Below are positions 16,534-45,064 of a DNA stretch of 64,000 nucleotides, piece by piece (the stretch's first letter is position 1; each line of letters begins with the position of its first letter). The notes beneath the pieces are model-generated. The model saw only the letters and a program-made list of their open reading frames with translations, had not been told where the DNA came from and made no database searches. Both the position numbers and the translations under genes were made by a program. This stretch comes from a virus: the IMG/VR virus record IMGVR_UViG_3300032331_000527, positions 32,001-96,000 of that record; one strand, written 5' to 3'.

Positions 16534-16541
16534 TATTTATA
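16534..16541 (-). promoter_or_regulatory. T4-type late promoter (TATAAATA)
   Basis: Exact consensus; intergenic, upstream of gp18. Confidence 0.8.
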
Positions 16542-21061: not shown

Positions 21062-21097
21062 AGGGGAGCTCTCCAATGAGTAACTCCCCTATTTATT
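21062..21097 (-). promoter_or_regulatory. Late promoter (AATAAATA, 21090-21097) overlapping an SD-sequestering hairpin of gp13
   Basis: Minus strand AATAAAT-AGGGGAGTTACTC-ATTG-GAGAGCTCCCCT-T-ATG. Confidence 0.7.
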
Positions 21098-23154
21098 CAT
21101 TTTGAATTCGTTCTGAATACGCCATCCCAATCTTTGGGTAACGGATTGGCTTTATACTCTTCGATGCGCTCAACCATCATATGATAATACTCTGTCATTT
21201 CACCTTCAAATGCTTTCTCAATGTAAGGAATATATTCGAGAGCTTTTTCCCAATACTGTTCGCGATAGAGTTGTAGAAAATCCGCATGCGAGCGAGAGAA
21301 AGCGATATTGAGTCCGTTCTTTTCAACGATGGTATAGATCTTAACCCCTTCGTTTTTGCCTTTAACCGCAAGGCAATCAAGCTCTAGGCATAGATACTCG
21401 TCCTTCACATATTCATAAGTCTTTGGACCTATGACCATCTTAACGTGATATGGCTTGCTCTGACCTTCTAGTCGAGAGGCCAGATTAACGGTATCACCAA
21501 GACAAGTGTAATCAAAACGTTGGTCACTACCCATATTGCCAACCACAACGGAGCCTGTGTTAATCCCAAGACCCATACCAAAGGGTGGAATACCCTCAGC
21601 GGTGACTTCTTTGTTAAATCGTTCCAGATCATCTAGCATCTCCAATGCTGTTTTAACTGCGTGTCTGGCGTGCATCTCATCATCAAGTGGTGCATTCCAA
21701 AACGCCATTTGAGCATCACCGATATACTTATCTAGTGTGCCATCGTTGTCAATGATCTTCTTGGTCATCGCTGTCATGTAGCGATTCATTATCTTAGTAA
21801 GGCCCTGAACGTCGGAGCCATAATGCTCAGAAATAGTAGTGAAACCACGAACGTCAGTAAACATAATCGATAGTTCACGAGTCTCTCCTCCTAGACGTAA
21901 TAGCTCAGGATTCTTCTGAAGTTTTTCAACAAGAGCTGGTGAAAGATAAGTTCCGAATTGCTTTTTGATTTGCTGCTTTAGTCTAAACTCGCGAGCGAAA
22001 TTGTTGAATACCAAATGCCCGAATACAGCAGATAGAGCCAATATAATATAGCTAGGATCCCAAAGTTGAAGTTCTGTTTTAAATAAGTAATATGACGTAA
22101 ACCCTATGCCAGAAACAAGGAAGGCATAAAATGGTACTGTCAGACTTACGCTCAGTTTTGGAACTATATGGAGCAATAGTAGTAGCATGGTGGTTAGTAG
22201 TGCTCCTTCTATTAGCCTTCCTACGTTTGGGCGAGAAATAGAAGTGCCATCGACCAGTGTTTGGAGTGTCTGCGCTTGGATCTCATGGGCCCACTTCTCA
22301 CCGATTGGTGTTGCTATGATACCACCAACACCTTCAATCGTTAGACCAAGAATAACAATCTTGTCCTTCACGCGAGCATCTATCTCGGTTGCTTCTAGCG
22401 TATCAAATTTGGTGTTCCAAGATAACCAGATGCGCCCGCGCTCGTCGGTTGAGATTGGTGGAAAAGCTGGGACTCTTACAGCTTCTATTCCACCTTCGTT
22501 CGTCTTAACTTGGAAGCTAGGGTCTCCAGCAGCGACACGAATGGTCTCCAAAGGTATGCTAGGATAAAGACCAGATGCAATATTGACCAATAGAGGCATA
22601 CGGCGAACCACACCGTCCAATTCAGAGATTGTTGCGACCACACCAACGCCTGAGGCAACTTCGGCATACTTGTCAAGAGGGCGTAATCCACCAGGCCAAC
22701 GATAGACAACCCTAGCAGGATCAACAGGACCGATACTAGCGAACCCACGACGGACCGAATCAGGTTTAGAATTTTGTGTAGTAGGTGTTTGTGCGAGGAT
22801 AACACCATCAAGAGTTTTTGCCAGTTCATCATCGCCACCTGCTCTGTCTTTCTCTGAGAATAGTATTGGTGCAACGATTACCGAAGCACCGTTTTCTTTT
22901 AGTTTGTTGATTGTCTTTGCGATATCTCTGCGGTCGAATGGCCACTGACCAAACTTCTCGACCGACTTCTCACCAAAATTGACAACGACAATTTCCTCTG
23001 ACTGTTTCTTATCAAGCGAAGTGATAAGATAATCAAAGGTCTTTAGCTGGAGCGTTTGAATCGCGCTTGGGTTGATTGCATACAATGTCAACAGGAGACA
23101 GGCGCTGATAGCAACCATCCATGTGCTTGTAAGAAACTTGGTCAGCTTTTCCAT
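21097..23154 (-). CDS. Membrane-bound CHASE2-domain class III adenylate cyclase
   Basis: N-terminal TM; CHASE2 motifs GQWPFDR and DGVVRRMPL; three TMs; cyclase motifs IMFTDVRGFT, LDKYIGDAQM, GMGLGINTG, DYTCLGDTVNLASRLEG; C-terminal WDGVF. Confidence 0.93.
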   Translation of the reverse strand: MEKLTKFLTSTWMVAISACLLLTLYAINPSAIQTLQLKTFDYLITSLDKKQSEEIVVVNFGEKSVEKFGQWPFDRRDIAKTINKLKENGASVIVAPILFSEKDRAGGDDELAKTLDGVILAQTPTTQNSKPDSVRRGFASIGPVDPARVVYRWPGGLRPLDKYAEVASGVGVVATISELDGVVRRMPLLVNIASGLYPSIPLETIRVAAGDPSFQVKTNEGGIEAVRVPAFPPISTDERGRIWLSWNTKFDTLEATEIDARVKDKIVILGLTIEGVGGIIATPIGEKWAHEIQAQTLQTLVDGTSISRPNVGRLIEGALLTTMLLLLLHIVPKLSVSLTVPFYAFLVSGIGFTSYYLFKTELQLWDPSYIILALSAVFGHLVFNNFAREFRLKQQIKKQFGTYLSPALVEKLQKNPELLRLGGETRELSIMFTDVRGFTTISEHYGSDVQGLTKIMNRYMTAMTKKIIDNDGTLDKYIGDAQMAFWNAPLDDEMHARHAVKTALEMLDDLERFNKEVTAEGIPPFGMGLGINTGSVVVGNMGSDQRFDYTCLGDTVNLASRLEGQSKPYHVKMVIGPKTYEYVKDEYLCLELDCLAVKGKNEGVKIYTIVEKNGLNIAFSRSHADFLQLYREQYWEKALEYIPYIEKAFEGEMTEYYHMMVERIEEYKANPLPKDWDGVFRTNSK

Positions 23155-23417
23155 CAGTATTGACTAACGATATAAGGGCTATTGGGACAAGTGAAACCAC
23201 AAGTAACACTAAGACTAAAAGACTGAGGCGTGTTTCCAGACTGAGAGATAATAGCCGAGATATTATCGCCAGTAAAATTAAGGGTAGCACTATGATTAGC
23301 ACCAGACTGAGTAATACTAACATTCTGTAAGGATCCTATGATGTTCACGGTTGCATTATTTACTGTCTGCGATAGCGCAGGCATTGTCATTAGAAGGAGC
23401 GCGATTAAAGTTTTCAT
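23154..23417 (-). CDS. Small secreted curlin-repeat protein
   Basis: Signal peptide MKTLIALLLMTMPALS, then VSITQSGANHSATLNFTGDNISAIISQSGN, then a Cys pair. Confidence 0.7.
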   Translation of the reverse strand: MKTLIALLLMTMPALSQTVNNATVNIIGSLQNVSITQSGANHSATLNFTGDNISAIISQSGNTPQSFSLSVTCGFTCPNSPYIVSQY

Positions 23418-23418
23418 G

Positions 23419-24528
23419 TCAGTTACCCTGCTTTATAGTTATCGTTGTGGTCCCAGCGCTGTTTACCATCTGTGTCACTGAACCACCATCTTGAGTCAAA
23501 TTCAACGTCATGTTATGCGTAGTTGATACAGTCAATTCCATATATGCGTTGTACGTTTCACGATAGAGCGTCACGTTATCTTGCTCAACAAAATACTTCA
23601 AACCTGTTGCAGCATTATATTTAGGCAGCAAAGCGTTGAACTCTGCAAGCTCATTACCTAACATCTGCGAATTTGATAGATCTAAAAAGTTCAGTAGAAA
23701 ATCACTATCAAGGAAATTGCGATCTAGTTTGTCATACTCGTTGAGATAGTTTTTGTCAAGCTCGCCATACTTTAGAAAATCAACGCCAAGTAAGTCTGCA
23801 TCTAATACGTTCGCGGCACGTTCTACTGTTTGTTCGCGCATGACAGGTTTCGCTGGTGCTACGATAAGCATATTGTTTATCTGATCTAGATTCAAATTCA
23901 TAATGTTGGACTTGAGTGTGCTAGTACTCGCTTGCACGTTTACTGTTTCAAATGCTCTAGTTAGCCAAATAACACCTGCATCTGTAGTAACAGATATGGA
24001 ACCAACCACGCAGTCTCGTTCAATATTACGCCAGCCAGCAGGACAAGAAGGAAGAAGGACAATAGTAGAGCGCCCAATTTCATCGACGGTACCTGAGAAA
24101 TCAGTTCCGCGGACACCGATTGTTGCTGTTGGTGTTTCCACCATGACTTGTTGCGGATCTGATTTAGCAATTTGCCCGGATGCATATTTGATAGTGCCGA
24201 GCGCCATCTTGATGCCAAGCTTGCCAGTTTTCTTTTCACCATCGTAAACAAAATTGTCAATGACAAGGCGGCTGTGCTCCGTTATCTGGACTTTAGTTTC
24301 GTCTCGGAACGTGATTCCCGCTTTACTGTTTGCGGTCGTTATTGTGTCCTTCATCTCAACGCCACTTTGCAGTGCGCTAGGAATCACGTTCGTTTCACGT
24401 TTTATTTCAGCTGGTCCTGACTGCTCAGTGACTTTTCCGACTTCCGCTTCAGTTGTGGTTGGACTTAACAGTAAGAGTATTGCCAGTACCAGTGATTGTA
24501 GAAATGACCTTAGAGTCAACAGCGCCAC
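23419..24528 (-). CDS. Exported FecR-domain protein (start uncertain: GTG 24528 or TTG ~24519)
   Basis: Signal peptide; FecR motifs DTITTANSKAGITFRDETKVQITEHSRLVI and VETPTATIGVRGTDF. Confidence 0.85.
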   Translation of the reverse strand: MALLTLRSFLQSLVLAILLLLSPTTTEAEVGKVTEQSGPAEIKRETNVIPSALQSGVEMKDTITTANSKAGITFRDETKVQITEHSRLVIDNFVYDGEKKTGKLGIKMALGTIKYASGQIAKSDPQQVMVETPTATIGVRGTDFSGTVDEIGRSTIVLLPSCPAGWRNIERDCVVGSISVTTDAGVIWLTRAFETVNVQASTSTLKSNIMNLNLDQINNMLIVAPAKPVMREQTVERAANVLDADLLGVDFLKYGELDKNYLNEYDKLDRNFLDSDFLLNFLDLSNSQMLGNELAEFNALLPKYNAATGLKYFVEQDNVTLYRETYNAYMELTVSTTHNMTLNLTQDGGSVTQMVNSAGTTTITIKQGN

Positions 24529-25126
24529 CTTGCTTTATATCTACAGTGTTTGTTGCACCTAAGATATTCACATCGGCTTCATGACCATTCGTAGATGCTA
24601 CGCCTGTTTGAATGATGTTGACATTATTGCCTCCACCACCGTCAATAAGAACCGTACTCTTCGCACCCGCGACTGCGCTGGAATCATTCTCTATGTTTAC
24701 GGTGTTGTTGTCTGTGTTAATTGTAACAGTTGATAATGTAAGCCCTTCAGCTTTTTGTGTCACTGTGTTTCCGTCACCCGTAACTGTGTTGTTGATAATG
24801 GATCCTGTACAGCTTCCGCTCACGCCGCAAGCAATTTCAATCGTATTGCTGTCGCCTGTGACTAACGAATTTACCTGTACAGCATCACCCTGAACATTAA
24901 TGCTCATCAGGTTGCTATTACCAATCTGATCAATCGTGACAATGTTATTTTGTCCGTTGAATATTGCTTTGTCGGTGACATTACCAATCGCATTCGAATT
25001 GCCAGTTTGAGTCAATGAAATTGTAGATCCGCCACCTATTTGGTCTACATACACACTATTGCTCGCGGCGTTTGCATATTGAAGCATAACCAAGAATGAC
25101 AAAAATGCCAGTCTTGTACGTTTCAT
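24449..25126 (-). CDS. Curlin-repeat (CsgA/CsgB-like) secreted protein
   Basis: Signal peptide ending ANA; repeats NSVYVDQIG, TISLTQTGNSN, NIVTIDQIGNSN, NNVNIIQTG, NTVDIKQGG; directly downstream of csgG. Confidence 0.8.
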   Translation of the reverse strand: MKRTRLAFLSFLVMLQYANAASNSVYVDQIGGGSTISLTQTGNSNAIGNVTDKAIFNGQNNIVTIDQIGNSNLMSINVQGDAVQVNSLVTGDSNTIEIACGVSGSCTGSIINNTVTGDGNTVTQKAEGLTLSTVTINTDNNTVNIENDSSAVAGAKSTVLIDGGGGNNVNIIQTGVASTNGHEADVNILGATNTVDIKQGGAVDSKVISTITGTGNTLTVKSNHN

Positions 25127-25130
25127 TTTG

Positions 25131-25934
25131 TTACCTCTTTTTGATACTCCAGAGCTTCTTCTTAGCTCCCTCCTTTATCATATCTGCTACTGCTGCTTCA
25201 ATTGCTATTCTAACTGCATACGTCGTAGGTTCATTAACAGCAGTTCCTGCTTCGAATTCCAAAGATTTCGTACCTACATCAAGAAATTTAAAAACGTTCG
25301 CGCCAGCACTTGTACTAAGAACTGTCTTGGATGATCCTGTTGAAAGTAAAATCTCACCTGTGTTTATGGATATCAAACGGATAACAACAGTGACTTCATC
25401 TTTACGATATTCTTGAGTAGCTCCGATTCCTAAGAATCTTGCGCCTATACCACCTGTTCCTACGTTAGTATCATAACCAACAACACCGCCATCTAACATA
25501 ATGCCAGCAACAGTAAGTGGTGTCAATGGCTTCGCTTGATCCTTTTCATAAAGCTCGCGCTGACTACGAATCAGCTGACGTTCTTTTACTAGATTATCAA
25601 GTGAAGCACGTTCTACAACTTGAAACCACTTACCTTTACCCGCATCCTGTAGTGCCTTGATTAGAAAAACTTCAGAGCCCTGCGTCACAGCAGAACTTAG
25701 ACTAGCAAAACCACTAGCTGGTTTACGTTGTCCTGTTAGATCAGGGAAACGATACACAGCGATTGGAATAAGAGGTCCGTCTACACCTTTCAGATTGGCT
25801 AATTCATTGAAACGCTTAGTCGTAATAACTTCGGGTGCTTCAACAGTAACTTCCATCGTTTCTTTAGTCACTTGAGTAGGCATACAACCAACTAACAATA
25901 GACTAGCAAGAACTATGCCAAAAATCTTTACCAT
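25131..25934 (-). CDS. csgG: Curli secretion channel lipoprotein CsgG
   Basis: Lipobox LLVGC; IAVYRFPDLTGQRKP, SSAVTQG, WFQVVERASLDNLVKERQLIR, GGIGARFLGIG, NEPT. Confidence 0.95.
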   Translation of the reverse strand: MVKIFGIVLASLLLVGCMPTQVTKETMEVTVEAPEVITTKRFNELANLKGVDGPLIPIAVYRFPDLTGQRKPASGFASLSSAVTQGSEVFLIKALQDAGKGKWFQVVERASLDNLVKERQLIRSQRELYEKDQAKPLTPLTVAGIMLDGGVVGYDTNVGTGGIGARFLGIGATQEYRKDEVTVVIRLISINTGEILLSTGSSKTVLSTSAGANVFKFLDVGTKSLEFEAGTAVNEPTTYAVRIAIEAAVADMIKEGAKKKLWSIKKR

Positions 25935-26377
25935 GCTAAACTCCCATATGGGACAACGACTTCTGTCACGCTGCCACCAGCATCCGTAATTCTTAGAGTA
26001 ATCTGTGATCCATCAGATGACCACTGAACGTTATTCGAAGCGATATCAAATGTACCTGAGGTATTTCCGTTATCAGTAAACAACTGCTCGGCTATTTTCT
26101 GCGAGAGCGTCGCGTACACGCGAGACTCCAAATTGTTCAAGAATTTTGCCAGATTAGTATTTTTCGCGGCGGACGCAGCTGCAGCTGCTTCAGCTTTTTT
26201 ATCTTCAGCCATCTTTTGTCTACGAGAAGCTTCTAGATTGTCGATTGTTAGAACGTGAGCTGAAAAACCTATACCACTGAAAGAAGGACTCTTAAACTGA
26301 AACTGTAAATCGTTTGCTAGAGTACTACTGCTTAGGATTAGGAGGAAGCTCAGTGCTGTGATCGTGCATCTGTTCAT
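25928..26377 (-). CDS. csgF: Curli assembly factor CsgF
   Basis: Signal peptide followed by DLQFQFKSPSFSG (CsgF N-terminal CsgG-binding peptide type); FLNNLESRVYATLS; C-terminal ITDAGGSVTEVVVP; adjacent to csgG. Confidence 0.88.
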   Translation of the reverse strand: MNRCTITALSFLLILSSSTLANDLQFQFKSPSFSGIGFSAHVLTIDNLEASRRQKMAEDKKAEAAAAASAAKNTNLAKFLNNLESRVYATLSQKIAEQLFTDNGNTSGTFDIASNNVQWSSDGSQITLRITDAGGSVTEVVVPYGSLAW

Positions 26378-26636
26378 ATTTCTGTTCCTCGATTTGTTGT
26401 CCTCGTAGCGTAAGCACTACGTTGACTTTCTGATTTAATCGAATAAGGTCATTATCTAGCATTCGAATACGATCAATCAAAGCAATCAGAACTGTATTAG
26501 CTTCGGAGAGTATGGGTTTGATTTCTTGAGTAGCCCACTTCCAAACATAAAAGATAAGGTATCCCATACCGCCAGCAGCGACGATGGGAAATCCATACTT
26601 ATTAATCATTTCTACTATGTCACCAGGCCCGGCCAT
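26325..26636 (-). CDS. Small single-TM coiled-coil membrane protein (GFPI motif, YvrJ/holin-like)
   Basis: KYGFPIVAAGGMGYLIFYVW followed by ALIDRIRMLDNDLIRL. Confidence 0.6.
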   Translation of the reverse strand: MAGPGDIVEMINKYGFPIVAAGGMGYLIFYVWKWATQEIKPILSEANTVLIALIDRIRMLDNDLIRLNQKVNVVLTLRGQQIEEQKYEQMHDHSTELPPNPKQ

Positions 26637-26920
26637 TAGTCTCTCCTTGCGTCGTTTTTACCGTCAGCTCTTGCGATACGATCTGTGTCTGGCTTTATGC
26701 CGAGTGCGTTCGATACCAAAGTATCGATGCGAATAACGTCATGGTTCATAGTCTTAACTCGATTGTCGAGCGCCGTGATAATTCCGCTCATTCCTTTAAC
26801 GCTACCCATCACACCGGCCAGAATAAATTTGAGCGTCAGGAACACGAAATATCCACCCGCGATTGACGAAGCAATAGGAAACCCCACTTCAGCCACGAGC
26901 TTGAAAAATTCTGCATTCAT
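26636..26920 (-). CDS. Small membrane protein, paralog of the downstream gene
   Basis: EVGFPIASSIAGGYFVFLTL followed by ALDNRVKTMNHDVIRI; AAGGA SD. Confidence 0.6.
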   Translation of the reverse strand: MNAEFFKLVAEVGFPIASSIAGGYFVFLTLKFILAGVMGSVKGMSGIITALDNRVKTMNHDVIRIDTLVSNALGIKPDTDRIARADGKNDARRD

Positions 26921-26942
26921 AACATGTCCTTTCCTTTTACGC

Positions 26943-26950
26943 TATTTATT
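26943..26950 (-). promoter_or_regulatory. T4-type late promoter (AATAAATA) heading the curli/cyclase cassette
   Basis: Same variant as upstream of gp19, gp13 and gp25; 22 nt before the ATG at 26920. Confidence 0.6.
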
Positions 26951-26968
26951 CAAGTGCTATATAGTTTT

Positions 26969-27658
26969 ATGATTGAACATGCTCTATTCCCTACGCTCGT
27001 ATGTGAGTTCGACTATCCCCGAAAAGACCTCTTTAAAAGAACGTTTTATGATCGTATTTTTGATTATATGACGGGTGATGGCTACTCAAACGAGTTTACA
27101 GGACACGTTAACATCCATCACGAAGAATCATTTTTGCCTTTCTTTCAGTTCGCTATCGACTGTGTTAAGCAGTACGCTTCTCGACTCCATATCGACAACG
27201 AACGCTTTGATTACAACATCACAAAGACTTGGCTGAATATCAAAAAAGAAAACTCAACAAATCTGCATCATCATCGCGACGCTCATATATCGTTCACTTA
27301 TTATGTCAATGTGCCTGAGTCGTTTTCGCGCCCAATTAGGTTTCACAACTACGAGCATAGAAATGAGCCTTATCCAGGTTCAATTCTATGGAACAACACA
27401 ACTAACACATGGGATGAGATAAACGCATACACTTGGCAATTTAATCCAAAAGAAGGACAGCTTTTTGTGTTTCCTTCTTCGTTGCCGCATGATACTGTAG
27501 GACAAAATGATAGTAGCATAGATAGTGGTACAACAAACGAATATGAGTTATCGCAGAATCGTATTTGTTTAGCAGCAGATATTGTTATGACCTACAAAGA
27601 AAATATGAAATCTCCTCTCGGAATCCAACCGATTAGTAATTGGAGAACTTTTGAATGA
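26969..27658 (+). CDS. 2OG-Fe(II) oxygenase (TIGR02466-like)
   Basis: Likely start MIEHALFPT; TWLNI..HHH..HISFTYY, PKEGQLFVFPSSLPH, RICLA. Confidence 0.85.
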   Translation: MIEHALFPTLVCEFDYPRKDLFKRTFYDRIFDYMTGDGYSNEFTGHVNIHHEESFLPFFQFAIDCVKQYASRLHIDNERFDYNITKTWLNIKKENSTNLHHHRDAHISFTYYVNVPESFSRPIRFHNYEHRNEPYPGSILWNNTTNTWDEINAYTWQFNPKEGQLFVFPSSLPHDTVGQNDSSIDSGTTNEYELSQNRICLAADIVMTYKENMKSPLGIQPISNWRTFE

Positions 27659-28278
27659 CGTACACTACCATATACAATGATCCATTATCAAGAGCTAAGG
27701 TATTGCATCCGTGGATTTATTGGGATAATGCGTTTACCGACGAAGAAATTGATGAGATTGTTGCGTATTGTGACAATAAAGAACTTATGTCTGGAACAGT
27801 AGTTGGTCCTGACTCAGAAGAAACAGTAGAAGAAGGTCGTGTTTCAAAGGTTGCTTTTCATGGAAGAAACCCAGATACAGCTTGGATATTTGACAGATTG
27901 AATTTCACTATCCAATCAGCCAACGAACAGTTTTTCAATTATCATCTGAATGGATACGATGCATTTCAGTACACAACATACAGTGATACTGATAAAGGTC
28001 ATTATACATGGCATATGGATACGCATTTTGGACAACCAGCAGGATCATTAAAATTCGATGAACCGAGAAAGTTATCACTAACTCTTATGTTGAATGATGA
28101 TTACGAAGGCGGAGAATTTCAATTTAATTTTAGCAATGAGTCGGATGCGATAATTCCAGTCAAGAAAAAAGGACGGATACTAATGTTCCCGTCCTTCATG
28201 CTTCATAGAGTTGCTCCAGTAACAAAAGGTATCCGTAGATCCATCGTTATTTGGGTAGTAGGTCCTAAGTTCGTTTAG
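27655..28278 (+). CDS. PKHD-type / prolyl-4-hydroxylase-like 2OG-Fe(II) oxygenase
   Basis: YTWHMD, RKLSLTLMLNDDYEGGEF, FPSFMLHRVAPVTKGIRRSIVIW. Confidence 0.9.
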   Translation: MTYTTIYNDPLSRAKVLHPWIYWDNAFTDEEIDEIVAYCDNKELMSGTVVGPDSEETVEEGRVSKVAFHGRNPDTAWIFDRLNFTIQSANEQFFNYHLNGYDAFQYTTYSDTDKGHYTWHMDTHFGQPAGSLKFDEPRKLSLTLMLNDDYEGGEFQFNFSNESDAIIPVKKKGRILMFPSFMLHRVAPVTKGIRRSIVIWVVGPKFV

Positions 28279-28671: not shown

Positions 28672-29607
28672 CTAGTTCGATGCCTTTGGATTATATACCC
28701 TATTTATAAAGGCTAACTCGTTCTTGATAGTAGCCTCTGTTTCTTTGGGATCCATGCAATATGAAAGATATGGTGCTCTAAGCTCCGCCACTTTCTTAAA
28801 GTCTGGATGCGCGCACGCGAGCTTCATGTCGGCTTCAAACGTCTTAACGAATCCAGCTCGCTCTTTAGGTACAGCAAAGAGTAGGATTGTCTGAAGATTA
28901 AACTCAGGGAATCCGATTTCTTTACCTGTAGGAGCATCTGGGAAAGTCTTCATACGCTCGTCAGAAGAAACAAGAAGCGCCTTAAGACCAATCATATCTG
29001 GCATTGTGAATACCGTATAGTCGACTTCCTTATTCTGAACTGCTAGAACGATATCTGGAACAGACTTGTACTTGATCTCATCGACTCTACCTTCAATCCC
29101 ATATTTTTTCATAAACAAATCGTTCATCATTCTAGCTGCTGGGCCAATAAGAGTCGAGCCGACATATGATTTTGGCTTGCTCTTAATAGAAGCAACAAGA
29201 TCGTCGATATTCTTAATCGGAGAATCTAGAGCAACTAGAACACCAAGCGTGTTCTTACCAATACCTGTACTGATGATAAAGTCATTATCACGATCAAATC
29301 CTGGCTTTGGGTTCTCTATCCTATTAACTGTAAGGGTCGAAATTCCTGTATAGAATACAACATCTTGATTTTGTTTAGCTAGAACAGTTGCTCTTAACGC
29401 AGCAACGTCACCAGCAGCGCCCATTGAAAATGCGAACTTGTATTCTCTTTCTTTTTGAACTGTGTTCAGAATCTGTGTAATACCAACTCCGATTAGTCCA
29501 CCACTACCAATAACTGGTAATGCGCTGACGAGTTCCACTTGCTTTTGCGCTAGTGCTGGAGACGCCAACATAGCGGCGAGTAAAGCAATTTTAATACCAC
29601 GAAACAT
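28672..29607 (-). CDS. Bug/TctC-family tripartite tricarboxylate transporter substrate-binding protein (divergent)
   Basis: Signal peptide ..SPALAQ; VLVALDSPIKNIDDLV, IKYKS..LAVQNKEVD, LKALLVSSDERMKTFPDAPTGKEIGFP. Confidence 0.8.
   Translation of the reverse strand: MFRGIKIALLAAMLASPALAQKQVELVSALPVIGSGGLIGVGITQILNTVQKEREYKFAFSMGAAGDVAALRATVLAKQNQDVVFYTGISTLTVNRIENPKPGFDRDNDFIISTGIGKNTLGVLVALDSPIKNIDDLVASIKSKPKSYVGSTLIGPAARMMNDLFMKKYGIEGRVDEIKYKSVPDIVLAVQNKEVDYTVFTMPDMIGLKALLVSSDERMKTFPDAPTGKEIGFPEFNLQTILLFAVPKERAGFVKTFEADMKLACAHPDFKKVAELRAPYLSYCMDPKETEATIKNELAFINRVYNPKASN
28701..28708 (-). promoter_or_regulatory. T4-type late promoter (TATAAATA)
   Basis: Exact consensus inside the 3' end of the Bug gene, about 40 nt upstream of the next ATG. 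Confidence 0.55.
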
Positions 29608-30841: not shown

Positions 30842-31683
30842 TTAATTTTCCATAGATCTAAGAACTCTATTAGATCTGCTCTTTTGCCAAAACTATAACC
30901 AGGTTTCGCCGTTTTCATACCGGAACTCATACTGATCTTTCGAGCTAGCTCACGGAACTCTTTATCGAACTCATATCCCAATATAGGACGATATTCTATC
31001 CCGTACAACTTACACTTCCACATGTCCACAGGTTCTTTGTCATCGTAGATAGCGTCTATCATAGCATAGGCTATCTCTAGTGTGTACATGAAAAATGGAA
31101 TTGTGTACTGTTCGCCTACGAAACACTCGTTATAACTATCCCACTCGTTCATCATTGGACGAAGCCTAACTTCTCCGTCTTCGTCGGGCTTTTCACCTTC
31201 AATCATATGTTCGCCAATAATCAATACGCCATCATTGTCTCTTGCGTATCTACAGGCGTGGATAGAAGGGATTGAAAAAATACCATATCCAAGTATCTTC
31301 TTTATCACTTCCTCATAGTATATACTGAGATACTCGCTATTGTCAAGATTTAATACGATGGGCTCGATATTAAGTTTCTTACACAGCTCAAAGGCGTATC
31401 TAAGTTCTTTTTCGTTACCCGAAGTCTTTACGATAATCACTTCAAAGGGAATATTGTTACGATGGAAACATTGGGTAACGAAAATAGAATCTGCGCCTCC
31501 GCTAAGAGCGACGTAAATCTTCTTGTTTTTTTCGTAGATTTTTTTGGCTGTGTAATCCGCGGCGTCTTGAAAGCTCATCTCTCGAAATGGATATGGGCGC
31601 AAACGAACATAGTACGCCATTCCTTTGACGAGCAATCGTTCGTAGATGTTGGTATCTACCCAGTCATTTTCGGTTGCCATCAA
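30838..31683 (-). CDS. PP-loop (adenine nucleotide alpha-hydrolase superfamily) protein
   Basis: KKIYVALSGGADS; ELRYAFELCKKLNI. Confidence 0.75.
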   Translation of the reverse strand: MMATENDWVDTNIYERLLVKGMAYYVRLRPYPFREMSFQDAADYTAKKIYEKNKKIYVALSGGADSIFVTQCFHRNNIPFEVIIVKTSGNEKELRYAFELCKKLNIEPIVLNLDNSEYLSIYYEEVIKKILGYGIFSIPSIHACRYARDNDGVLIIGEHMIEGEKPDEDGEVRLRPMMNEWDSYNECFVGEQYTIPFFMYTLEIAYAMIDAIYDDKEPVDMWKCKLYGIEYRPILGYEFDKEFRELARKISMSSGMKTAKPGYSFGKRADLIEFLDLWKIK

Positions 31684-32119
31684 ATCCCTTCCAAGTACCG
31701 AATATCAAATCCCACACAGGGATAAACACACCATAATTACGAGTCGGGTCTTGGTGATGGATTAGATGCCACTTACCACTGGTAAGGAACGGATAAAGAT
31801 TAATGCGTTTGTTGTGTTCTATAGCTTCCTGAATGAAAGCAGCCCAAACATAATAAGCTACGAATAACCACCAATGACCTGTTACAGCACTAATTATAAA
31901 GGTTGGGATCACCTCTGTCAACCACTGATCTACGGTACTGTTTATCGTATCAAACCAAAGAAATGCGTTCTTCCAGCTCAATCCCTGTATCGTAGCATTC
32001 GTGACTTGAGCGTGATGATCAATATGAAATTGACGCATGAACGGCCACGCATGCGCGAGTCTGTGCATCCAGTAGATTGTGAACGTCCATAGAATGAATA
32101 CAAGGAAATAATGCATCAC
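31664..32119 (-). CDS. Sterol desaturase / fatty-acid hydroxylase superfamily membrane enzyme
   Basis: His boxes YWMHRLAH, HIDHH, EH, HLIHH, then NYG..WDLIFGT. Confidence 0.88.
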   Translation of the reverse strand: MMHYFLVFILWTFTIYWMHRLAHAWPFMRQFHIDHHAQVTNATIQGLSWKNAFLWFDTINSTVDQWLTEVIPTFIISAVTGHWWLFVAYYVWAAFIQEAIEHNKRINLYPFLTSGKWHLIHHQDPTRNYGVFIPVWDLIFGTWKGFDGNRK

Positions 32120-36140: not shown

Positions 36141-39100
36141 TTATACCTGTAGAGCGATAGCTCTTAAATCCCTCACGCGAGGAGGATTTGTGCTGGTGCT
36201 ATTTATGAGTACGATCTTAATCTGGAAATACTTGAACGTTTCGAATTTGGCTTTCGCTGTGTTCAGATACTTATAGATGCCCGATGAAGTGTTAGAACCA
36301 AACTTATACGGCGAACCGCTTGAAGCTGCATAGTCAGGCACATCATATACGAGTTCAATAAAATCGTTTTTGTTTTCGCTGCTTGAATAGCGAGTTCCAG
36401 AAGTAAATCCTTGATCAGTATTAAGAGTCATCGGAATCCAACGAGCCTGATCCATAGTATCACTATCAGAAGCATTTAAAGCTTTCATATAAACTAGGAT
36501 ATCTGATCCAGATGGTTTATATACGGTTAGATATGCGCGAAGATCTTCAGCGTCTTGACCATCAGCCAATGTTACGATACGAGTGATATATCGAGCTTCT
36601 GAACTTCCGCCAAACTGAACATAATCTTCTGTTGTTCCTATAGCCGTAGCAGTACTAATCAAATTATGTGTCGAGTACAATGTGATACGACTTAGATCGA
36701 TAGCAGGAGATGCTACTTTATTGCGTCCATCTAGCTGATACATAATTTCTACTGATCTATTCGTAGCCATTGTAGCAGAAGTTGCAGCTGTATTAGATTC
36801 ATTGCTGCGACTTAGGATATACCTTGGTACACTGAATTCATTGTCTCCATTCATATTCAACTTGAAGAACGTAGTGTCACGTGCGCTCGTACTTGTAGCC
36901 ATCTTAGCATAAGCACGAACTTGATTGTTTGACGGCTGAATCATATTCGTGATCAAGTTGACATTGTCCATCGCAAGATTAATGATGGAAACAATACGTC
37001 CGCTGTATCCGTTTGTTTGACCCTTGATATATGTGCCAGCCAAGAACAATCTTGCGTTAGCGAACGCAGGACCTGTGTTGATATACGATACGTTAGCAAC
37101 AACCAGACGTGTATTAGCATAGTTCGTACTATCATAATAATACACACGTCCTGTTGGATACGTAGCAGAAGTTGTAGCAGAAGAAGTGAGAATCAATTGA
37201 CCATTAGTCGCATTTCTGTATGCATTGTTCGCGATCTTAACTCTTACTTGCTCACCACCTCTAAATGGCGTACCTGCTGAAACTTCTCGAACTCTAATTG
37301 CGTCAGTAGCGAACTTAACAATTTTTCCTGTAGCTCCAGAAGTCACACCGACAACATATGCAGATCCATTCGTAACGTGACGACCAATTGAAATGTTACC
37401 GTTAGCCGCTGCAGCTGCTCCAGTCCAGGTACCAGATGTTGTTGCGAAGTTACCTACGATACGAGTTTCGCCGTGAATAACTTCACCAGTTCTTGAAAGA
37501 GCACCAGTCGTGTTCGCGATATTAAATGTGTCGCGAGCAGGATTCTTTACGATAAGATTACCAACATTGCTTGTGTCAAACTCAGCATAGTAAGCAGTGT
37601 ATTTTAGATCTTCATCGATAACTGGTTCGTAAATTCGATCGTTTGATGAATAGTAAAGGACTCCGCTTGCTGGCTGTTCTGAGATACGAGCACCTTCTCC
37701 CTTGAGCGCACGAGCTGCACCAATTCCTGTATAGTCATTCATTCCGATAACAGCAGTATGAATTAGATAATTTGGATTTGTTGCGATTGGAGCAACAAGA
37801 ACAGCATATTCAGTTTCGTCAGAAAGATAAACTGGCGCAGGGAAATATACTGGTGTTGGTACTGTTGCGTCATCACTGATGTTAACATCATCTGGCTGTA
37901 GTGTAACACGACCATATGGCAGAACACGACGAGTAATCGTACCGCTGGCAGGATCTACTTCACGGAGTTGAATTTCAACACCAAGTTTCGCGTCCTTGCC
38001 CTGGAAATATAAATCCATCTTGGTAATATACATACCACTCGTTTCGATTTGAGCAGTATGACGACCGGTAACAACGAAAGTTTGAGCAAGAGGATCCTGT
38101 TCGTTCGCTGGAGCGAAGTCTTGCACGCTTACGATTCTAGATCCTGTTGCGACTGATGTTGAACTCTGAGAACCAGTTGAAGATTTTAATAATGCAGTTT
38201 GTGTAATCTCAACAGATTTAGTTGTTGTAGAAAGAGCAGAAACTGTTGAAGACAATCCTTCAGCTGTGTATTGAGCTTCAGCTGCTGTTGTATATTGTCC
38301 TTTTGTACTAGAATTTGTTGCATTATCAACAAAACGTAGACGCTTGGTACCAGTTTTGAATTTAAGAGCTGCATCATTAGGCAAACGGAATACACCGTAA
38401 ATAAAACCTCCTGATCCAACTACCATTGCAGAACCTTCTGCTGATGCTGGTTTAACCGGATTTCCATTAGAATCTTTAAGACCAGATAGATATTCAGCTT
38501 CTGTCAATGGTGTTACATATGCGCTAACATATGTATCATCAAAGAACGCATATAGAGTGCTAGAAGGGCGCATACCTTCAATTTTAAACAAAATCATACG
38601 AGAACGCATAAAAGGTATGATACTTGTATCTTTAACGATATTTCCGTAAGATTGCGTATTCGTGTTTACCTTAATGCCTGTTTGATTGCCAGTTTGAGTA
38701 GTGATTGTTGGAGTAGCATATGTAGAAGTTGTTTGAGTTGAAGCGCTGGTTACTAAGGTATCACCACCACCAGCAGCGTTGCCCATAAGCCACTGTTGTT
38801 GATAAGCAGTATCTACTGTTACGCTTCCTGTGAGTACTGGCGCTCCAGTAAATGAAGTGATAGGCGCATTCCACGTTGCTGGCCAGGTAGACGCAAGATA
38901 TTCCCATGCGTCAGTATTCTGATCGATCATGATGTTAGTATCTGGACCCTGAACAGTATCACACCAGTAATCAGAATCTGGCGTTAGAGTCATGGTACCT
39001 CTATAGCTATAAGAAGCACCTGATCCGTTTCTTGTTGTTGATGCATATGGTTGATTGACAAGCACCTTATGTGAATAAGGAAGTGTTACTAGAAGACCTG

Positions 39101-42100
39101 GAGATTGTGTTTGAACAGCAGAAATAGTGAGTGTCCCACCACCATCGCTACTTGTGACTGTTGCGCCTGCTACGAAATTGCCTGTGGCGTTTTCAATATA
39201 GATTCTAGTTCCTACTTTATGACGGATAGTCGCAGTATATGATCCAGAAGTTACTGTTGCGCCGGCTTTAAATGAATTCGTTCCAGGAGTTGTAGTGAAC
39301 GTGACACGCTGATCTTTAGATACACCAGCAGGAGTTACGTTCGTGCGAACAACATATGTTGAATTAGACGTATAATGTAGTGGTGTTTCGTCAATCGTGA
39401 AACGAGGACGCATTTGACCTTTTTCAGGATCGATCGCGATCTTATAATCAAGATCAAACACATTACCTACTGCGTGTGAAGTAAATGAGTCAACGAGAAT
39501 ACCGTTCTTGAAACGATCAGCACCGGCATTATCTTGAACGAGCATGTCACTCGCGCTCTTCTCAAGAAGATTGAGAGAAGTGTAATATTCAAGACGATCG
39601 ATACGTTGAGCAATTTGTCCTATATCTTTCATCGTATAACGACGATTGCTTAGCTTTTTAAGACCAATAGCTTGATCTGGACGTCCATAACGACGAGCCA
39701 TAACAGCAGGGATTGAAGGATATGGAGAAACTCCAATCATAGCCATAGCCATAACATCATCAGGAACTGTTGGTGGAACTGGTCTTTGACCAGCAACGCC
39801 GCGAGTAATATTAAGTTTACCTTTTTCAGTTAAACCGACGATGTCGATACGAGATTGATAATAACTAAGATCTGTTGTGAAATCTTCATTTGGTGGAGTA
39901 AAATGCAAACCGCCTGAAGGAAGAACGAAAGTATTCGCTACCTTTGGATTAATAGAAATATTTGTCAGAGATGTTACGCTATTGGCACTATCTGTTTTTC
40001 TAGGACGGAAATCCACACTATCTCTAAGATCGTATGTTGTGCCTGATGTTTTTGATTTGTATAGAGGAATTTCGTATGTGAATATCTTAGCTGTATCTGT
40101 TCCTGCCGTAGCATCATTAACTGGATAAGAGTCTACAGAAAAGAATCCTCTACCAGAAGTACCATGAGCAAGATAATCTAACTTAACAAGCAAACGATCG
40201 TTCGCACTAATTGTTAATGAGCTAGAAGGAATCTTAACTAGCTTGGCGTGATCATAGAAACTGTCTTCCATTCCCGAATCTAGAACGAATTGTGAAGTAA
40301 CATCAGACCCATCTGTAGTTGTTACGAAATTTGAACCGTTCTTCTTGCGAACTGATACGAGTTTAAATCCGTCCGAGAATCCAAGAGGCCAAGGTCCAGA
40401 CGTGTTAGCCACATATGAAGTTCCGCCACCATTGTTTACGTTGATTTGTACCAAACGTCCACGTTGAACAGTTTTCGTTTCTTCTTGTGAAAGCAGCTTG
40501 TTTAATTTTACGATTACTGTTGCGTCGAGCGTTCCCGCTCCCGCGATAGTTTCGTTCAGATTTAGAACAGCCGTATTCAATGGTGTACCAGAAGGAGTAA
40601 TAGCACGAGCGCCATTTCTTCCATATCCAGCAAAATCAAGAATTTGTCCGCCTTTAAATTTCTTAAAGTATGCACCGTTCGTTATTGTAGAACCAGCATT
40701 GTTCAGAACGCTAAGAGTCGTTGCGCCAACTGCACTTACGATAAAGTCTCCTGCGAGACCAATATTGATAATATCGCCTACAGCTACTTGTCCAGTGAAG
40801 TTAGGTGTTGTTGAACCTTGTGTTACTGTGTTAGCACCACTTGTGATAGATACAGTACCTGTTAGAGTAGATGTGTTTGCGTTTCCACGAGAAACAATAT
40901 ACCAATCAGAACGCTGTCCGTCTGAGCTGAGAGCAACACCAGCACTTCCATCGTATGTTTCATCCGCTGCGCCAGTCGACAATGAATATGTACCGGCAGA
41001 GTTGAACGTGATATCAAATGATTTATAGAATGTGAAATCGTTTCTAACTGCATCGCTGCTGCTACGAAGCTTTCTTATAGCTGTAGCAGGCAAACGAAAA
41101 AGCGCAGTATCATAATTTGGTGAAGTCATTGCTGCAGCAGGAGAAGCTACGATATCAGCTTTTCCTAGAACAGTACCTGTTCCTCCGTTGTATCCAATGG
41201 ACTGAACATTCTTGAACGTGTATCCGGCATTCAATTTGATATCTGTTAGATATAGTTTATAGAAAGCTCCAGGAGTACCAGGAGTTCCGCTATAATATTC
41301 AACACCACGAACACGAGCTTTACCTACTTCGTTTCCTGGAAAATTAGTTGATGAATACACTTTTGTGAAAACTGCATTCGCTTGTAGCGTACGAAGTGAA
41401 ACAACGCCTTGTTGATTTAAATCCCACTGTCCGCATACGTTACGCACAATAACATAGTTGCCGTAATCAGCAAGAGTCTTGGCGTCGGCAATTGTTTGAT
41501 AATCAATACCCTTATCAATAGTTTTGCTTGTTGAAACAATACGATCTACGTCATATCCATGAACATAAGCTTTTCCTGGCTCTGCGAACACAACAAGCTG
41601 TGATGAATTTCCGCCTTCTCCTGATGTGTAGATACCTTGATTGTTACCAGTCTTTAGATGCTCTTTGACGCTGATATTGAATCCTTGTACAACATAGTCT
41701 CCAGATTCATCGTATGTACGACTAGCAATATAATCACGAATTTTAGCATATTCTGTTTTTGTAGAAGTAGACTGAATAGTACCATTTTTAACTTGCATAA
41801 GTTCTACGAATGTATTTGATACAGTAGCAGTTAGATCTACTGCAATGATAGGCGCAGTCAATTTAAGACGAGCTGCGCCAGGAGCTGCATAATTATACGC
41901 TCCGCTCGCTGGATCTAGGAGAGTTCCGTCGTCGACTTCAGTTACGATTGTTTCTGCTACGTCAAATCCTACACGAGCACTACCAGTCGTAGAATATTTA
42001 CTGATAACAACTGTTTGAGCAGGAACGCGAATGAAGTGATCTTTAGCATAGATAACGCCGGCATTAAAAGTAGCTGCCGTTCCAATACCCGCAGCTCCAC

Positions 42101-45056: not shown

Positions 45057-45064
45057 TATTTATA
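45057..45064 (-). promoter_or_regulatory. T4-type late promoter (TATAAATA)
   Basis: Exact consensus; intergenic, followed by an AGGAG SD. Confidence 0.8.

Follow-up and report, generated by a model that had tools for sequence, protein, structure and literature searches.

The 64,000-nucleotide (nt) stretch analyzed here, referred to below as the window, covers positions 32,001 to 96,000 of IMG/VR virus record IMGVR_UViG_3300032331_000527, a 139-kb record that is ~78% complete. From position 26920 down to 21097, its minus strand carries eight open reading frames (ORFs) in one direction, encoding two small membrane proteins, homologues of CsgF and CsgG, a curlin-repeat protein, a secreted FecR-fold protein, a second and much shorter curlin, and a CHASE2 adenylate cyclase. 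The same eight genes stand in the same order in the deposited annotations of Pelagibacter phage HTVC008M and Methylophilales phage Melnitz (our loci L002 and L001). A preliminary description, made from the letters of the window, had listed eight co-oriented genes at this place and in this order; all of them were recovered from the ORF list and its translations, and Pfam assigned families to six of the eight proteins, which confirms the observation. The relevant Pfam cut-offs are 20.7 bits for Curlin_rpt and 25.8 bits for CsgF (PF10614). The features, read along the minus strand, are as follows.

26943..26949, minus strand: T4-late-promoter-like ATAAATA core (AATAAATA), 22 nt upstream of the first ATG
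26636..26920, minus strand: small membrane protein 1, 94 amino acids (aa); phrog_18771, E 3.8e-33
26325..26636, minus strand: small membrane protein 2, 103 aa; phrog_18771, E 2.7e-33
25928..26377, minus strand: CsgF homologue, 149 aa, signal peptide; PF10614, E 2.1e-18
25131..25934, minus strand: CsgG lipoprotein channel homologue, 267 aa, lipobox LLLVGC; PF03783, E 1.5e-50
24449..25126, minus strand: curlin-repeat protein 1, 225 aa, signal peptide; Curlin_rpt, E 3e-4, 21.1 bits
23419..24528, minus strand: secreted FecR-fold protein, 369 aa, GTG start; PF04773, E 2.6e-11
23154..23417, minus strand: mini-curlin, 87 aa, signal peptide; Curlin_rpt, E 9.5e-5, 22.7 bits
21097..23154, minus strand: CHASE2 class III adenylate cyclase, 685 aa; PF05226, E 1.1e-39, and PF00211, E 3.9e-22
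21063..21089, minus strand: GC-rich inverted repeat GGGGAG...CTCCCC, between the cyclase stop and the neck-protein ATG

The eight genes and their predicted proteins

The genes are tightly packed: five of the seven junctions are overlaps (1, 53, 7, 80, and 1 nt) and the other two are gaps (4 and 1 nt). The earlier statement that neighbors overlap or lie at most 4 nt apart thus holds, though two of the overlaps are long. The two small transmembrane (TM) genes overlap by 1 nt and the second of them overlaps csgF by 53 nt, while the mini-curlin gene lies between the FecR and cyclase genes, 1 nt away from one and overlapping the other by 1 nt. The FecR gene begins at a GTG located 80 nt inside the first curlin gene, in another frame (24449-24528), so that the same DNA encodes the FecR signal peptide and the last curlin repeat. 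This overlap amounts to ~50 to 80 nt in close relatives (e.g., L004 and L005) and 23 nt in Melnitz, and there is none in HTVC008M. The signal peptides of CsgF, both curlins, and the FecR protein, as well as the CsgG lipobox, were read off the translations. The G+C content is ~42%. According to PHROG matches, the cassette is flanked by two 2-oxoglutarate (2OG)-Fe(II) oxygenase genes on one side and by T4-type neck and terminase genes on the other. CsgE and CsgC had not been recognized in the preliminary description, and a profile search of the ~78% complete 139-kb record (PF10627 and PF10610) likewise gave no match at an E value of ≤0.01.

The late-type promoter of the preliminary description corresponds to AATAAATA, a 7-of-8 match to TATAAATA, and 13 of the 14 ATAAATA cores in the window lie on the gene-bearing minus strand. 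The total number of cores does not exceed that in shuffled sequences, and TATAAATA itself occurs five times, which is not above chance. Because of the incomplete match and the unremarkable core count, a late promoter ahead of the cassette is no more than plausible. Many ATAAATA cores were found just upstream of ORF starts, as expected of T4-type late promoters (for instance, 16534-16540, 21090-21096, 28701-28707, and 45057-45063). The core at 21090-21096 directly follows the cyclase stop and is itself followed by the inverted repeat at 21063-21089 and the neck gene. The repeat may be a terminator or a leader structure; the terminator scan made no call at it, and the five terminator-like sites that it returned are all on the plus strand. 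A scan for sigma-70 promoters yielded 17 sites compared to 12.5 ± 3.4 in shuffled sequences and gave no usable signal.

The first two genes encode paralogues. According to hydropathy and alignment, small membrane protein 1 contains a single hydrophobic helix followed by the conserved helix ALDNRVKTMN(H/N)D, with RIARADGK.DARRD as its tail; small membrane protein 2 aligns with it and carries a conserved LIDRIRMLDNDLIRL. Neither matches a Pfam family at an E value of ≤0.1, their ESM Atlas neighbors are viral hypothetical proteins only, and the phrog_18771 family is restricted to six cassette-bearing records among 50,697 phage records. Both are homologous, at 50 to 57% identity, to the genes that precede csgF in Melnitz and HTVC008M. 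Genes in this position were labeled "histidine kinase" in PMC9599517 (here and below, PMC9599517, PMC7029224, and PMC9004378 stand for the accessible portions of those articles). We examined this label and rejected it. The proteins have 94 and 103 residues and no kinase domains, and the candidate phosphorylated histidine (in MNHD) is asparagine in 7 of the 14 aligned members of the first family and in all 14 of the second. Since they are short, are devoid of kinase domains, and do not conserve the histidine, these proteins, as judged from their sequences, are not histidine kinases.

CsgF matches PF10614 with 67.2 bits over model positions 4 to 132 of 132, and no CsgF match was obtained at an E value of ≤1 among solved structure chains. 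CsgG matches the E. coli CsgG chains 3x2r, 4q79, and 6l7a over its full length (residues 5 to 265, E 3.3e-46). After its signal peptide, curlin 1 contains ~nine repeats of the Q.G..N type and two cysteines that are conserved in an alignment of 31 sequences (alignment A4). Its AlphaFold2 model (predicted local distance difference test [pLDDT] score, 87.9) consists of all-beta repeats forming a predicted beta-solenoid, which aligns to beta-helix proteins with Z scores of up to 17.8. Foldseek returned no match to this model at an E value of ≤0.001, and the CsgA fibril 8enq ranked 49th (E 0.57). The mini-curlin has ~three repeats and reached a Curlin_rpt E value of 6.2e-6 in the genome scan, and its counterparts in Melnitz and HTVC008M are proteins of 338 to 441 aa.

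In the FecR-fold protein, the signal peptide is followed by a beta domain (~30-210), which an acidic, DFL-rich linker joins to a beta region at the C terminus; this last region is conserved, with Q346, I365, and Q367 invariant (alignment A2). Its AlphaFold2 model has a pLDDT of 63 overall and of 70 to 82 in the FecR domain (residues 30 to 210), with a low-confidence linker. Over ~150 residues, Foldseek matched this domain to 4m0h and 4m0n, the periplasmic signaling domain of a Parabacteroides anti-sigma factor, and to 6ovk, PupR bound to its outer-membrane transducer (E 1.8e-5 to 6.2e-5). Although the C-terminal region looks like a curlin repeat (h.h.Q.G), this candidate was discarded: Pfam Curlin_rpt was found in none of 10 FecR C termini at an E value of ≤10, and a profile of the tail built from 39 sequences scored its best real curlin at E 1.7 compared to E 0.055 for the best shuffled one.

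The family name invites the reading that the FecR protein is an iron-dicitrate-type regulator and that the module controls the import of iron or a cofactor through the channel, an option also raised in PMC9599517. However, the protein has neither an N-terminal cytoplasmic anti-sigma domain nor a TM anchor, and a cleavable-looking signal peptide directly precedes the beta domain at ~residue 30; it is not an anti-sigma factor. Furthermore, none of the eight cassette proteins matches a Pfam family of extracytoplasmic function (ECF) sigma factors or TonB-dependent transducers, and the bacterial relatives described below adjoin CHASE2 transducers and Slam-like or tetratricopeptide repeat (TPR) proteins rather than fecIA-type genes. 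We regard an iron-regulatory role as very improbable.

In the product of the last gene, an N-terminal TM helix precedes the periplasmic CHASE2 domain (~31-313), after which come more TM helices and the catalytic domain, which is cytoplasmic. PF05226 covers residues 21 to 325 and PF00211 residues 426 to 609, with hydrophobic segments at 7-32 and 314-352. The solved structures closest to the catalytic domain are 6fht and Pseudomonas aeruginosa CyaB (3r5g), both with an E value of ~1e-33. D434, K476, D480, and R561 are invariant in all 33 aligned sequences, and T/S550 and N557 are kept in 28 of the 33, including the window protein. We take these six positions to be the metal-binding, substrate-defining, and transition-state residues of class III cyclases, and the Lys/Thr pattern fits an active adenylate cyclase of subclass IIIb. 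The phage enzyme thus looks active from its sequence. Five members (L039, L041, L048, L056, and L057) form a subclade in which T550 is replaced by Asp and N557 by Ser but the metal-binding and Lys/Arg residues are retained; the activity or specificity of these enzymes may differ.

The cassette among viral relatives

Conservation of the block was evaluated in 48 IMG/VR loci obtained with a CsgG-seeded scan (49 to 91% identity), in which the parts were located by tblastn. Loci were considered judgeable for FecR when at least 1.9 kb of downstream DNA was available and for CHASE2 plus cyclase when at least 4.2 kb was. FecR followed csgG in all 41 judgeable loci, and CHASE2 with the cyclase domain was present in 35 of 37. 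It was missing from L031, where the available downstream sequence amounts to 8.1 kb, and from L040, where it amounts to 5.1 kb; in L041, a close relative of L040, the cyclase lies 3.7 kb beyond FecR. The mini-curlin was detected in 28 of the 37 judgeable loci. The two small TM genes were upstream and on the same strand in 22 loci and undetected in 9, five of which are cut short on the relevant side. The independent assortment of FecR and cyclase from csgFG, which the preliminary description had named as an outcome that would speak against a joint system, was not seen in phages. These counts support the view that the eight genes behave as one unit in phages.

The unit occupies two or more genome contexts. 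Some 18 loci have it flanked by 2OG oxygenases and a neck gene, as in the window, while in L013, for example, it lies between thymidylate synthase and carbamoyltransferase plus PhoH. The degree of identity to the window shifts sharply from one part of the block to another. L029 reaches 90 to 97% in the TM genes and the cyclase and 87 to 90% in the neck genes, but only 50 to 69% from csgF to FecR. In L013, whose flanks are unrelated, CHASE2 is 98% identical, CsgG 82%, and TM protein 2 67%. L004 shares its flanks with the window and its first four genes are 85 to 93% identical, but its cyclase only 64 to 71%. The first curlin is the most variable part of the cassette (26 to 87% identity to the window). 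The closest relatives of the middle of the block thus differ from those of its ends. Such abrupt shifts point to recombination inside the block and, as read from these alignments, indicate that parts of the cassette have been swapped with its gene content retained.

Two relatives have unusual frames. The FecR ORF of L046 (12112-14664) is 850 aa long and may be fused with the downstream gene, and the cyclase frame of L051 (2430-4303) is interrupted after 331 codons. The alignments left out L039, L052, and L055 (all three for an internal stop), along with L046 in A2 and L051 in A3, and near-duplicate loci were thinned by hand.

FecR/CHASE2 pairing in bacteria and a possible envelope relay

To place the non-curli half of the cassette, we considered the best 80 bacterial loci of a scan with the FecR alignment, taking one genome per species. 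The six best (L052 to L057) gave full-length matches and are metagenome-assembled genome (MAG) contigs of ≤50 kb that carry the phage cassette with its phage-only TM genes. They are labeled Flavobacteriaceae, Pelagibacter, Polynucleobacter, Legionellales, Rhodobacteraceae, and Pirellulales. Because these labels are discordant and the TM genes are phage only, they are probably phage contigs binned into MAGs rather than bacterial cassettes. Among the remaining 74 loci, CHASE2 was found within 10 kb of FecR in 22, 16 of them with a cyclase domain; since L079 and L085 are identical, these represent at most 21 distinct sequences. The reverse search gave a similar picture: a FecR-domain ORF occurred within 7 kb in 14 of the 40 best-scoring alphaproteobacterial CHASE2 loci compared to none of 8 csgG-centered loci (~150 kb) used as a small background control. 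CHASE2 itself was present in 89 of 201 sampled genomes. These observations support FecR and CHASE2 as a recurrent, reciprocal gene pair in bacteria.

Curli genes, in contrast, are kept apart from this pair. CsgG, CsgF, or a curlin was found in none of the 74 bacterial FecR loci. A close csgG (42 to 51% identity) was present in 7 of 401 sampled genomes, all from one alphaproteobacterial class, and none of the seven had FecR, CHASE2, or a cyclase within 10 kb. FecR and the cyclase were already described as foreign to bacterial curli operons in PMC9599517; the present counts agree and add the reciprocal pairing. Since bacteria keep curli and FecR/CHASE2 separate yet pair FecR with CHASE2, the phage cassette is, on this comparison of gene neighborhoods, a type VIII secretion unit joined to a preexisting bacterial FecR/CHASE2 sensor pair.

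We infer the following scheme for its function. The eight genes would be expressed as one unit, probably late in infection. CsgG and CsgF would form a channel in the host outer membrane, with the two Sec-exported curlins as its cargo, which would assemble into a beta-solenoid fibre or coat on the infected cell. The soluble periplasmic FecR-fold protein would partner, or carry a ligand for, the periplasmic CHASE2 domain of the inner-membrane cyclase, so that the condition of either the envelope or the secretion unit would be converted into cyclic AMP (cAMP). This cAMP would be read by host receptors, which we propose because no cyclic nucleotide-binding domain was found in the phage record. That the cassette is a member of a viral curli module working as an envelope relay is the best explanation we can offer overall, and we consider it about as apt to be right as wrong. 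The scheme as a whole, from late expression as a unit through curlin export and cue sensing by FecR and CHASE2 to cAMP acting on host receptors, is more tentative still.

Some of the evidence bears directly on the relay that the preliminary description had proposed from curlin through FecR to CHASE2. The step from FecR to CHASE2 gains from the reciprocal neighborhoods (22/74 and 14/40 loci), and the FecR domain has the fold of PupR, which binds an outer-membrane transducer; this also supports a relay. The step before it, in which curlin export or CsgG would feed FecR, finds no counterpart among the 74 bacterial FecR loci. The relay is thus plausible, with gene neighborhoods arguing for its FecR/CHASE2 step only.

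Several further points weigh against it. The counts of 0/74 and 0/7 mean that the sensor pair needs no curli, and its location beside csgFG in phages could therefore be linkage without shared function. Among the viral loci, L031 has FecR but no cyclase within 8.1 kb, and 17 of 39 loci place the small TM genes past the cyclase in opposite orientation, so that one operon of eight genes is not universal. The curlin assignments rest on Pfam scores barely over the cut-off (21.1 and 22.7 versus 20.7 bits), and the predicted fold of curlin 1 fits beta-helices generally and not CsgA specifically. In the HMMER alignment, the Y, N, and F loop residues of E. coli CsgG, which we take to be the channel constriction, align with A, S, and L in the phage protein. 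The record yielded no cyclic nucleotide-binding domain (PF00027) at an E value of ≤0.01, within its ~78% completeness, and the motif ahead of the cassette is the 7-of-8 match noted above, in a window whose core count is not above shuffles. Finally, Melnitz infections were described without reported clumping in PMC9004378.

The main rival to the relay is that two independent modules travel together, namely, curli secretion for surface remodeling and FecR/CHASE2 for raising host cAMP, linked by one exchangeable island. It agrees with the separation of the two halves in bacteria, with the position of the cassette in a variable region of at least two genome contexts, with the recombination indicated by the sharp identity shifts inside the block of L029 and L013, and with the absence of the cyclase from L031. 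However, content and order have survived recombination and relocation (35/37 and 41/41 loci), the mini-curlin gene is set tightly between FecR and the cyclase, and the first curlin gene contains the coding sequence of the FecR signal peptide. In addition, the module parts were near-equal in abundance across ocean stations in PMC9599517. We judge independent modules to be unlikely.

Another gene neighborhood suggests a different place for the FecR protein. The genes of an operon in L079 (8461-14793) encode, in turn, an outer-membrane protein of the Slam type (PF04575, E 7.9e-14), a FecR protein of 909 aa that ends in a TbpB-like barrel (TbpB_B_D), and a CHASE2 cyclase. The TbpB-like barrel domain was first described in surface lipoproteins such as TbpB. 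L085 is identical to L079 over the compared genes, leaving one distinct sequence confirmed by Pfam. Their record titles disagree on the organism, naming a proteobacterial MAG in one case and a Kordia assembly in the other, and one of the contigs is probably misassigned given that their genes are identical. A second FecR protein, in L090, carries FHBP_C/TbpB_B_D. We tested 10 ORFs located upstream of bacterial FecR genes: Pfam detected SlipAM in the one from L079 and TPR repeats only in the other nine, which resemble the L079 protein by tblastn with E values down to 1e-27. This resemblance is a lead only, as their Slam identity is unconfirmed. Beside alphaproteobacterial CHASE2 genes, L210, L218, L219, L223, and L237 have an N-terminal FecR domain in open frames of ~980 to 2,100 codons.

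These loci raise the possibility that the phage FecR-fold protein is itself exported or surface-displayed cargo of CsgG/CsgF, acting as a surface receptor or adhesin whose engagement would be reported to CHASE2. In the L079/L085 operon, the bacterial FecR proteins appear to be cargo of a Slam-like (type XI) exporter, the L090 protein has a similar C terminus, the many very long FecR ORFs beside CHASE2 (to ~2,100 codons) are as expected of surface proteins, and the C-terminal beta region of the phage protein is conserved with its invariant Q346, I365, and Q367. Against this, CsgG passes unfolded chains through a narrow channel, to our knowledge no folded protein of 340 residues is an established CsgG cargo, and the other nine upstream ORFs are not confirmed as Slam. 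FecR as cargo is, in our estimate, rather improbable, and a periplasmic FecR partner of CHASE2 is preferred.

A last alternative concerns the channel itself. CsgG and CsgF could be a repurposed pore that serves lysis timing, in the manner of a pinholin or secretin, or uptake, with curlins, FecR, and cyclase being accessory or unrelated. The altered residues of the presumed constriction loop and the failure to find CsgE, the periplasmic gate, in the ~78% complete record would suit such a pore, which was proposed for Melnitz and the pelagimyophages in PMC9004378 and PMC7029224. Both articles, however, overlooked the curlins, two curlin-repeat proteins with Sec signals that are present and conserved here and also reported in PMC9599517. 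No lysis genes were identified beside the cassette in the window, where the neighbors are neck proteins and 2OG oxygenases. An outer-membrane pore also leaves the inner membrane polarized. We consider a lysis or uptake pore improbable, and curlin export remains the preferred role of the channel.

Taken together, the neighborhoods suggest a recurring three-layer layout, with an exporter or barrel in the outer membrane, then a FecR-fold protein, then a CHASE2 transducer, of which the phage cassette would be the type VIII version. More speculatively, and with little expectation of being right, this could be a general design assembled several times (Slam-like/FecR/CHASE2 in Proteobacteria, NsrA/CHASE2 in S. 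meliloti, and CsgG-CsgF/FecR/CHASE2 in phages), in which the "ligand" of CHASE2 is a FecR-fold partner set by the exporter and not a small molecule. If so, the phage version would report the assembly or contact of surface fibers as cAMP in the infected cell. No established signal for CHASE2 was found in the literature that we searched. In this respect, the reciprocal neighbors turn the vague notion of a "regulatory FecR and cyclase" into the testable idea that the FecR-fold protein is the partner of CHASE2.

Other genes surround the cassette. Besides the two 2OG-Fe(II) oxygenases, they include a TctC-family periplasmic receptor with a signal peptide (PF03401, E 1.8e-13) as well as a fatty acid hydroxylase (PF04116, E 4.2e-17); these auxiliary genes lie at 26924-28278, 28672-29607, and 31664-32119. 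TctC-type receptors are very numerous in some Betaproteobacteria, and this one may hint at a betaproteobacterial host. An ORF of 2163 aa with DUF4815 (36141-42632, E 2.7e-54) probably encodes a large structural or fiber protein. No tRNA genes were found in the window.

Relation to described systems

With the canonical enterobacterial curli system (csgBAC-csgDEFG), the cassette has in common CsgG (E 3.3e-46 to the E. coli protein), CsgF, and secreted curlin-repeat proteins. CsgE and CsgC belong to the enterobacterial system, whereas neither was found in the ~78% complete phage record. The phage curlins also differ from enterobacterial ones, having ~nine or ~three repeats and, in the long one, two conserved cysteines. 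Moreover, the phage cassette joins FecR and a CHASE2 cyclase, both of which are absent from canonical curli operons.

The sensor half resembles the NsrA/CyaD1-CyaD2-CyaK/Clr system of Sinorhizobium meliloti in its inner-membrane CHASE2 adenylate cyclases. There, sensing of an external protein signal by the CHASE2 cyclases depends on NsrA, an outer-membrane barrel (PMC7529298, PMC13001267), and the FecR-domain periplasmic protein SMc02177 is a target of the CHASE2-cyclase/Clr regulon that is not required for signal perception, according to the accessible part of PMC5498481. The outer-membrane partner in S. meliloti is a large barrel protein and not CsgG, and the system includes Clr, a receptor of the CRP type, whereas no cyclic nucleotide-binding domain was found in the phage record. 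In the Burkholderia BiofilmReg operon, a gene for a secreted FecR-domain protein likewise stands directly beside that of a CHASE2 transducer. This operon consists of a response regulator, a LysM-FecR protein, a CHASE2 histidine kinase, and DUF4136 and is tied to biofilm formation (PMC5192318, accessible part). It differs from the phage cassette in its histidine kinase/response regulator output, in the LysM domain of its FecR protein, and in having no secretion-channel genes. The L079/L085 operon has an outer-membrane exporter gene, a FecR-fold gene, and a CHASE2 adenylate cyclase gene in this order, but its exporter is Slam (PF04575), its 909-aa FecR protein ends in a C-terminal barrel, and it contains no curlins. 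The FecR/PupR cell-surface regulators share the periplasmic FecR-fold domain, while the phage protein is devoid of their anti-sigma domain and anchor.

The closest relatives are viral. Phage-collection searches seeded with the cyclase and with CsgG converged on four Melnitz genomes and HTVC008M (filed twice), with a few unrelated cyclase or CsgG hits, and the deposited Melnitz labels already read CsgF, CsgG, curlin, FecR, curlin, and cyclase. A "curli operon" of pelagimyophages was described in PMC7029224, and the CsgG/CsgF pore of Melnitz was modeled, and a role in lysis timing proposed, in PMC9004378; neither article, in its accessible portion, mentions the cyclase or FecR. The full module was set out in PMC9599517 (mSystems 2022) as one or two genes called "histidine kinase" followed by CsgF, CsgG, CsgA/B, FecR, in many cases another CsgA/B, and adenylate cyclase. 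It was reported there from podo- and myoviruses, with an alphaproteobacterial origin and transfer between virus families, and was detected in metatranscriptomes. The novelty implied by the preliminary description for the cassette was consequently not upheld, since the whole block is annotated in HTVC008M and Melnitz and was described together with FecR and cyclase in PMC9599517. Based on the domain matches, on the gene order of Melnitz and HTVC008M, and on that description, we are highly confident that the cassette is a new, uncultured member of the described "viral curli" (type VIII secretion system) module from T4-like relatives of pelagiphages and methylophages. According to the accessible portions of the published papers, known hosts of such phages do not have this secretion system. 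The cassette would thus supply the infected cell with both a secretion system and a second-messenger sensor.

CHASE2 is not named in the accessible portion of PMC9599517, and our literature searches found no work that brings CHASE2, phages, and curli together, although the supplements of PMC9599517, PMC7029224, and PMC9004378 may already show CHASE2 or bacterial gene neighborhoods; none of the articles found that join CHASE2 and FecR is on phages. Likewise, no freshwater member of the module was found in the literature, of which unseen supplements may include some, and the freshwater pelagimyophages of PMC7029224 are without the curli operon in its accessible portion.

Compared to this described module, the cassette in the window has the same components in the same order (two small genes, csgF, csgG, curlin, FecR, second curlin, and adenylate cyclase) and the same T4-like myovirus background, with a TerL that is 54 to 56% identical to those of Melnitz, Mosig, and cyanomyophages and <60% identical to that of every phage record. 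Its proteins, however, are only 30 to 57% identical to those of HTVC008M and Melnitz, its second curlin has 87 aa versus 338 to 441 aa, and it is located between 2OG oxygenases and a neck gene, whereas those of HTVC008M and Melnitz follow ssb or thyX. The published viral modules are marine, whereas near-identical DNA was found here in runs labeled freshwater, lake water, and biofilm metagenome: the window DNA is ~100% identical in one run, and pieces that are 90 to 97% alike occur in runs of other studies, covering 27 (biofilm), 30 (freshwater), and 29 (lake water metagenome) of 30 bins. The value of the present analysis is incremental because the cassette is already in print. To the described module it adds the CHASE2 assignment, the rejection of the "histidine kinase" label, mosaic exchange, and the near-identical freshwater- and lake-labeled DNA. 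The cassette in the window thereby represents a divergent lineage with near-identical DNA in freshwater-labeled runs, whose block has been reshuffled internally yet kept complete.

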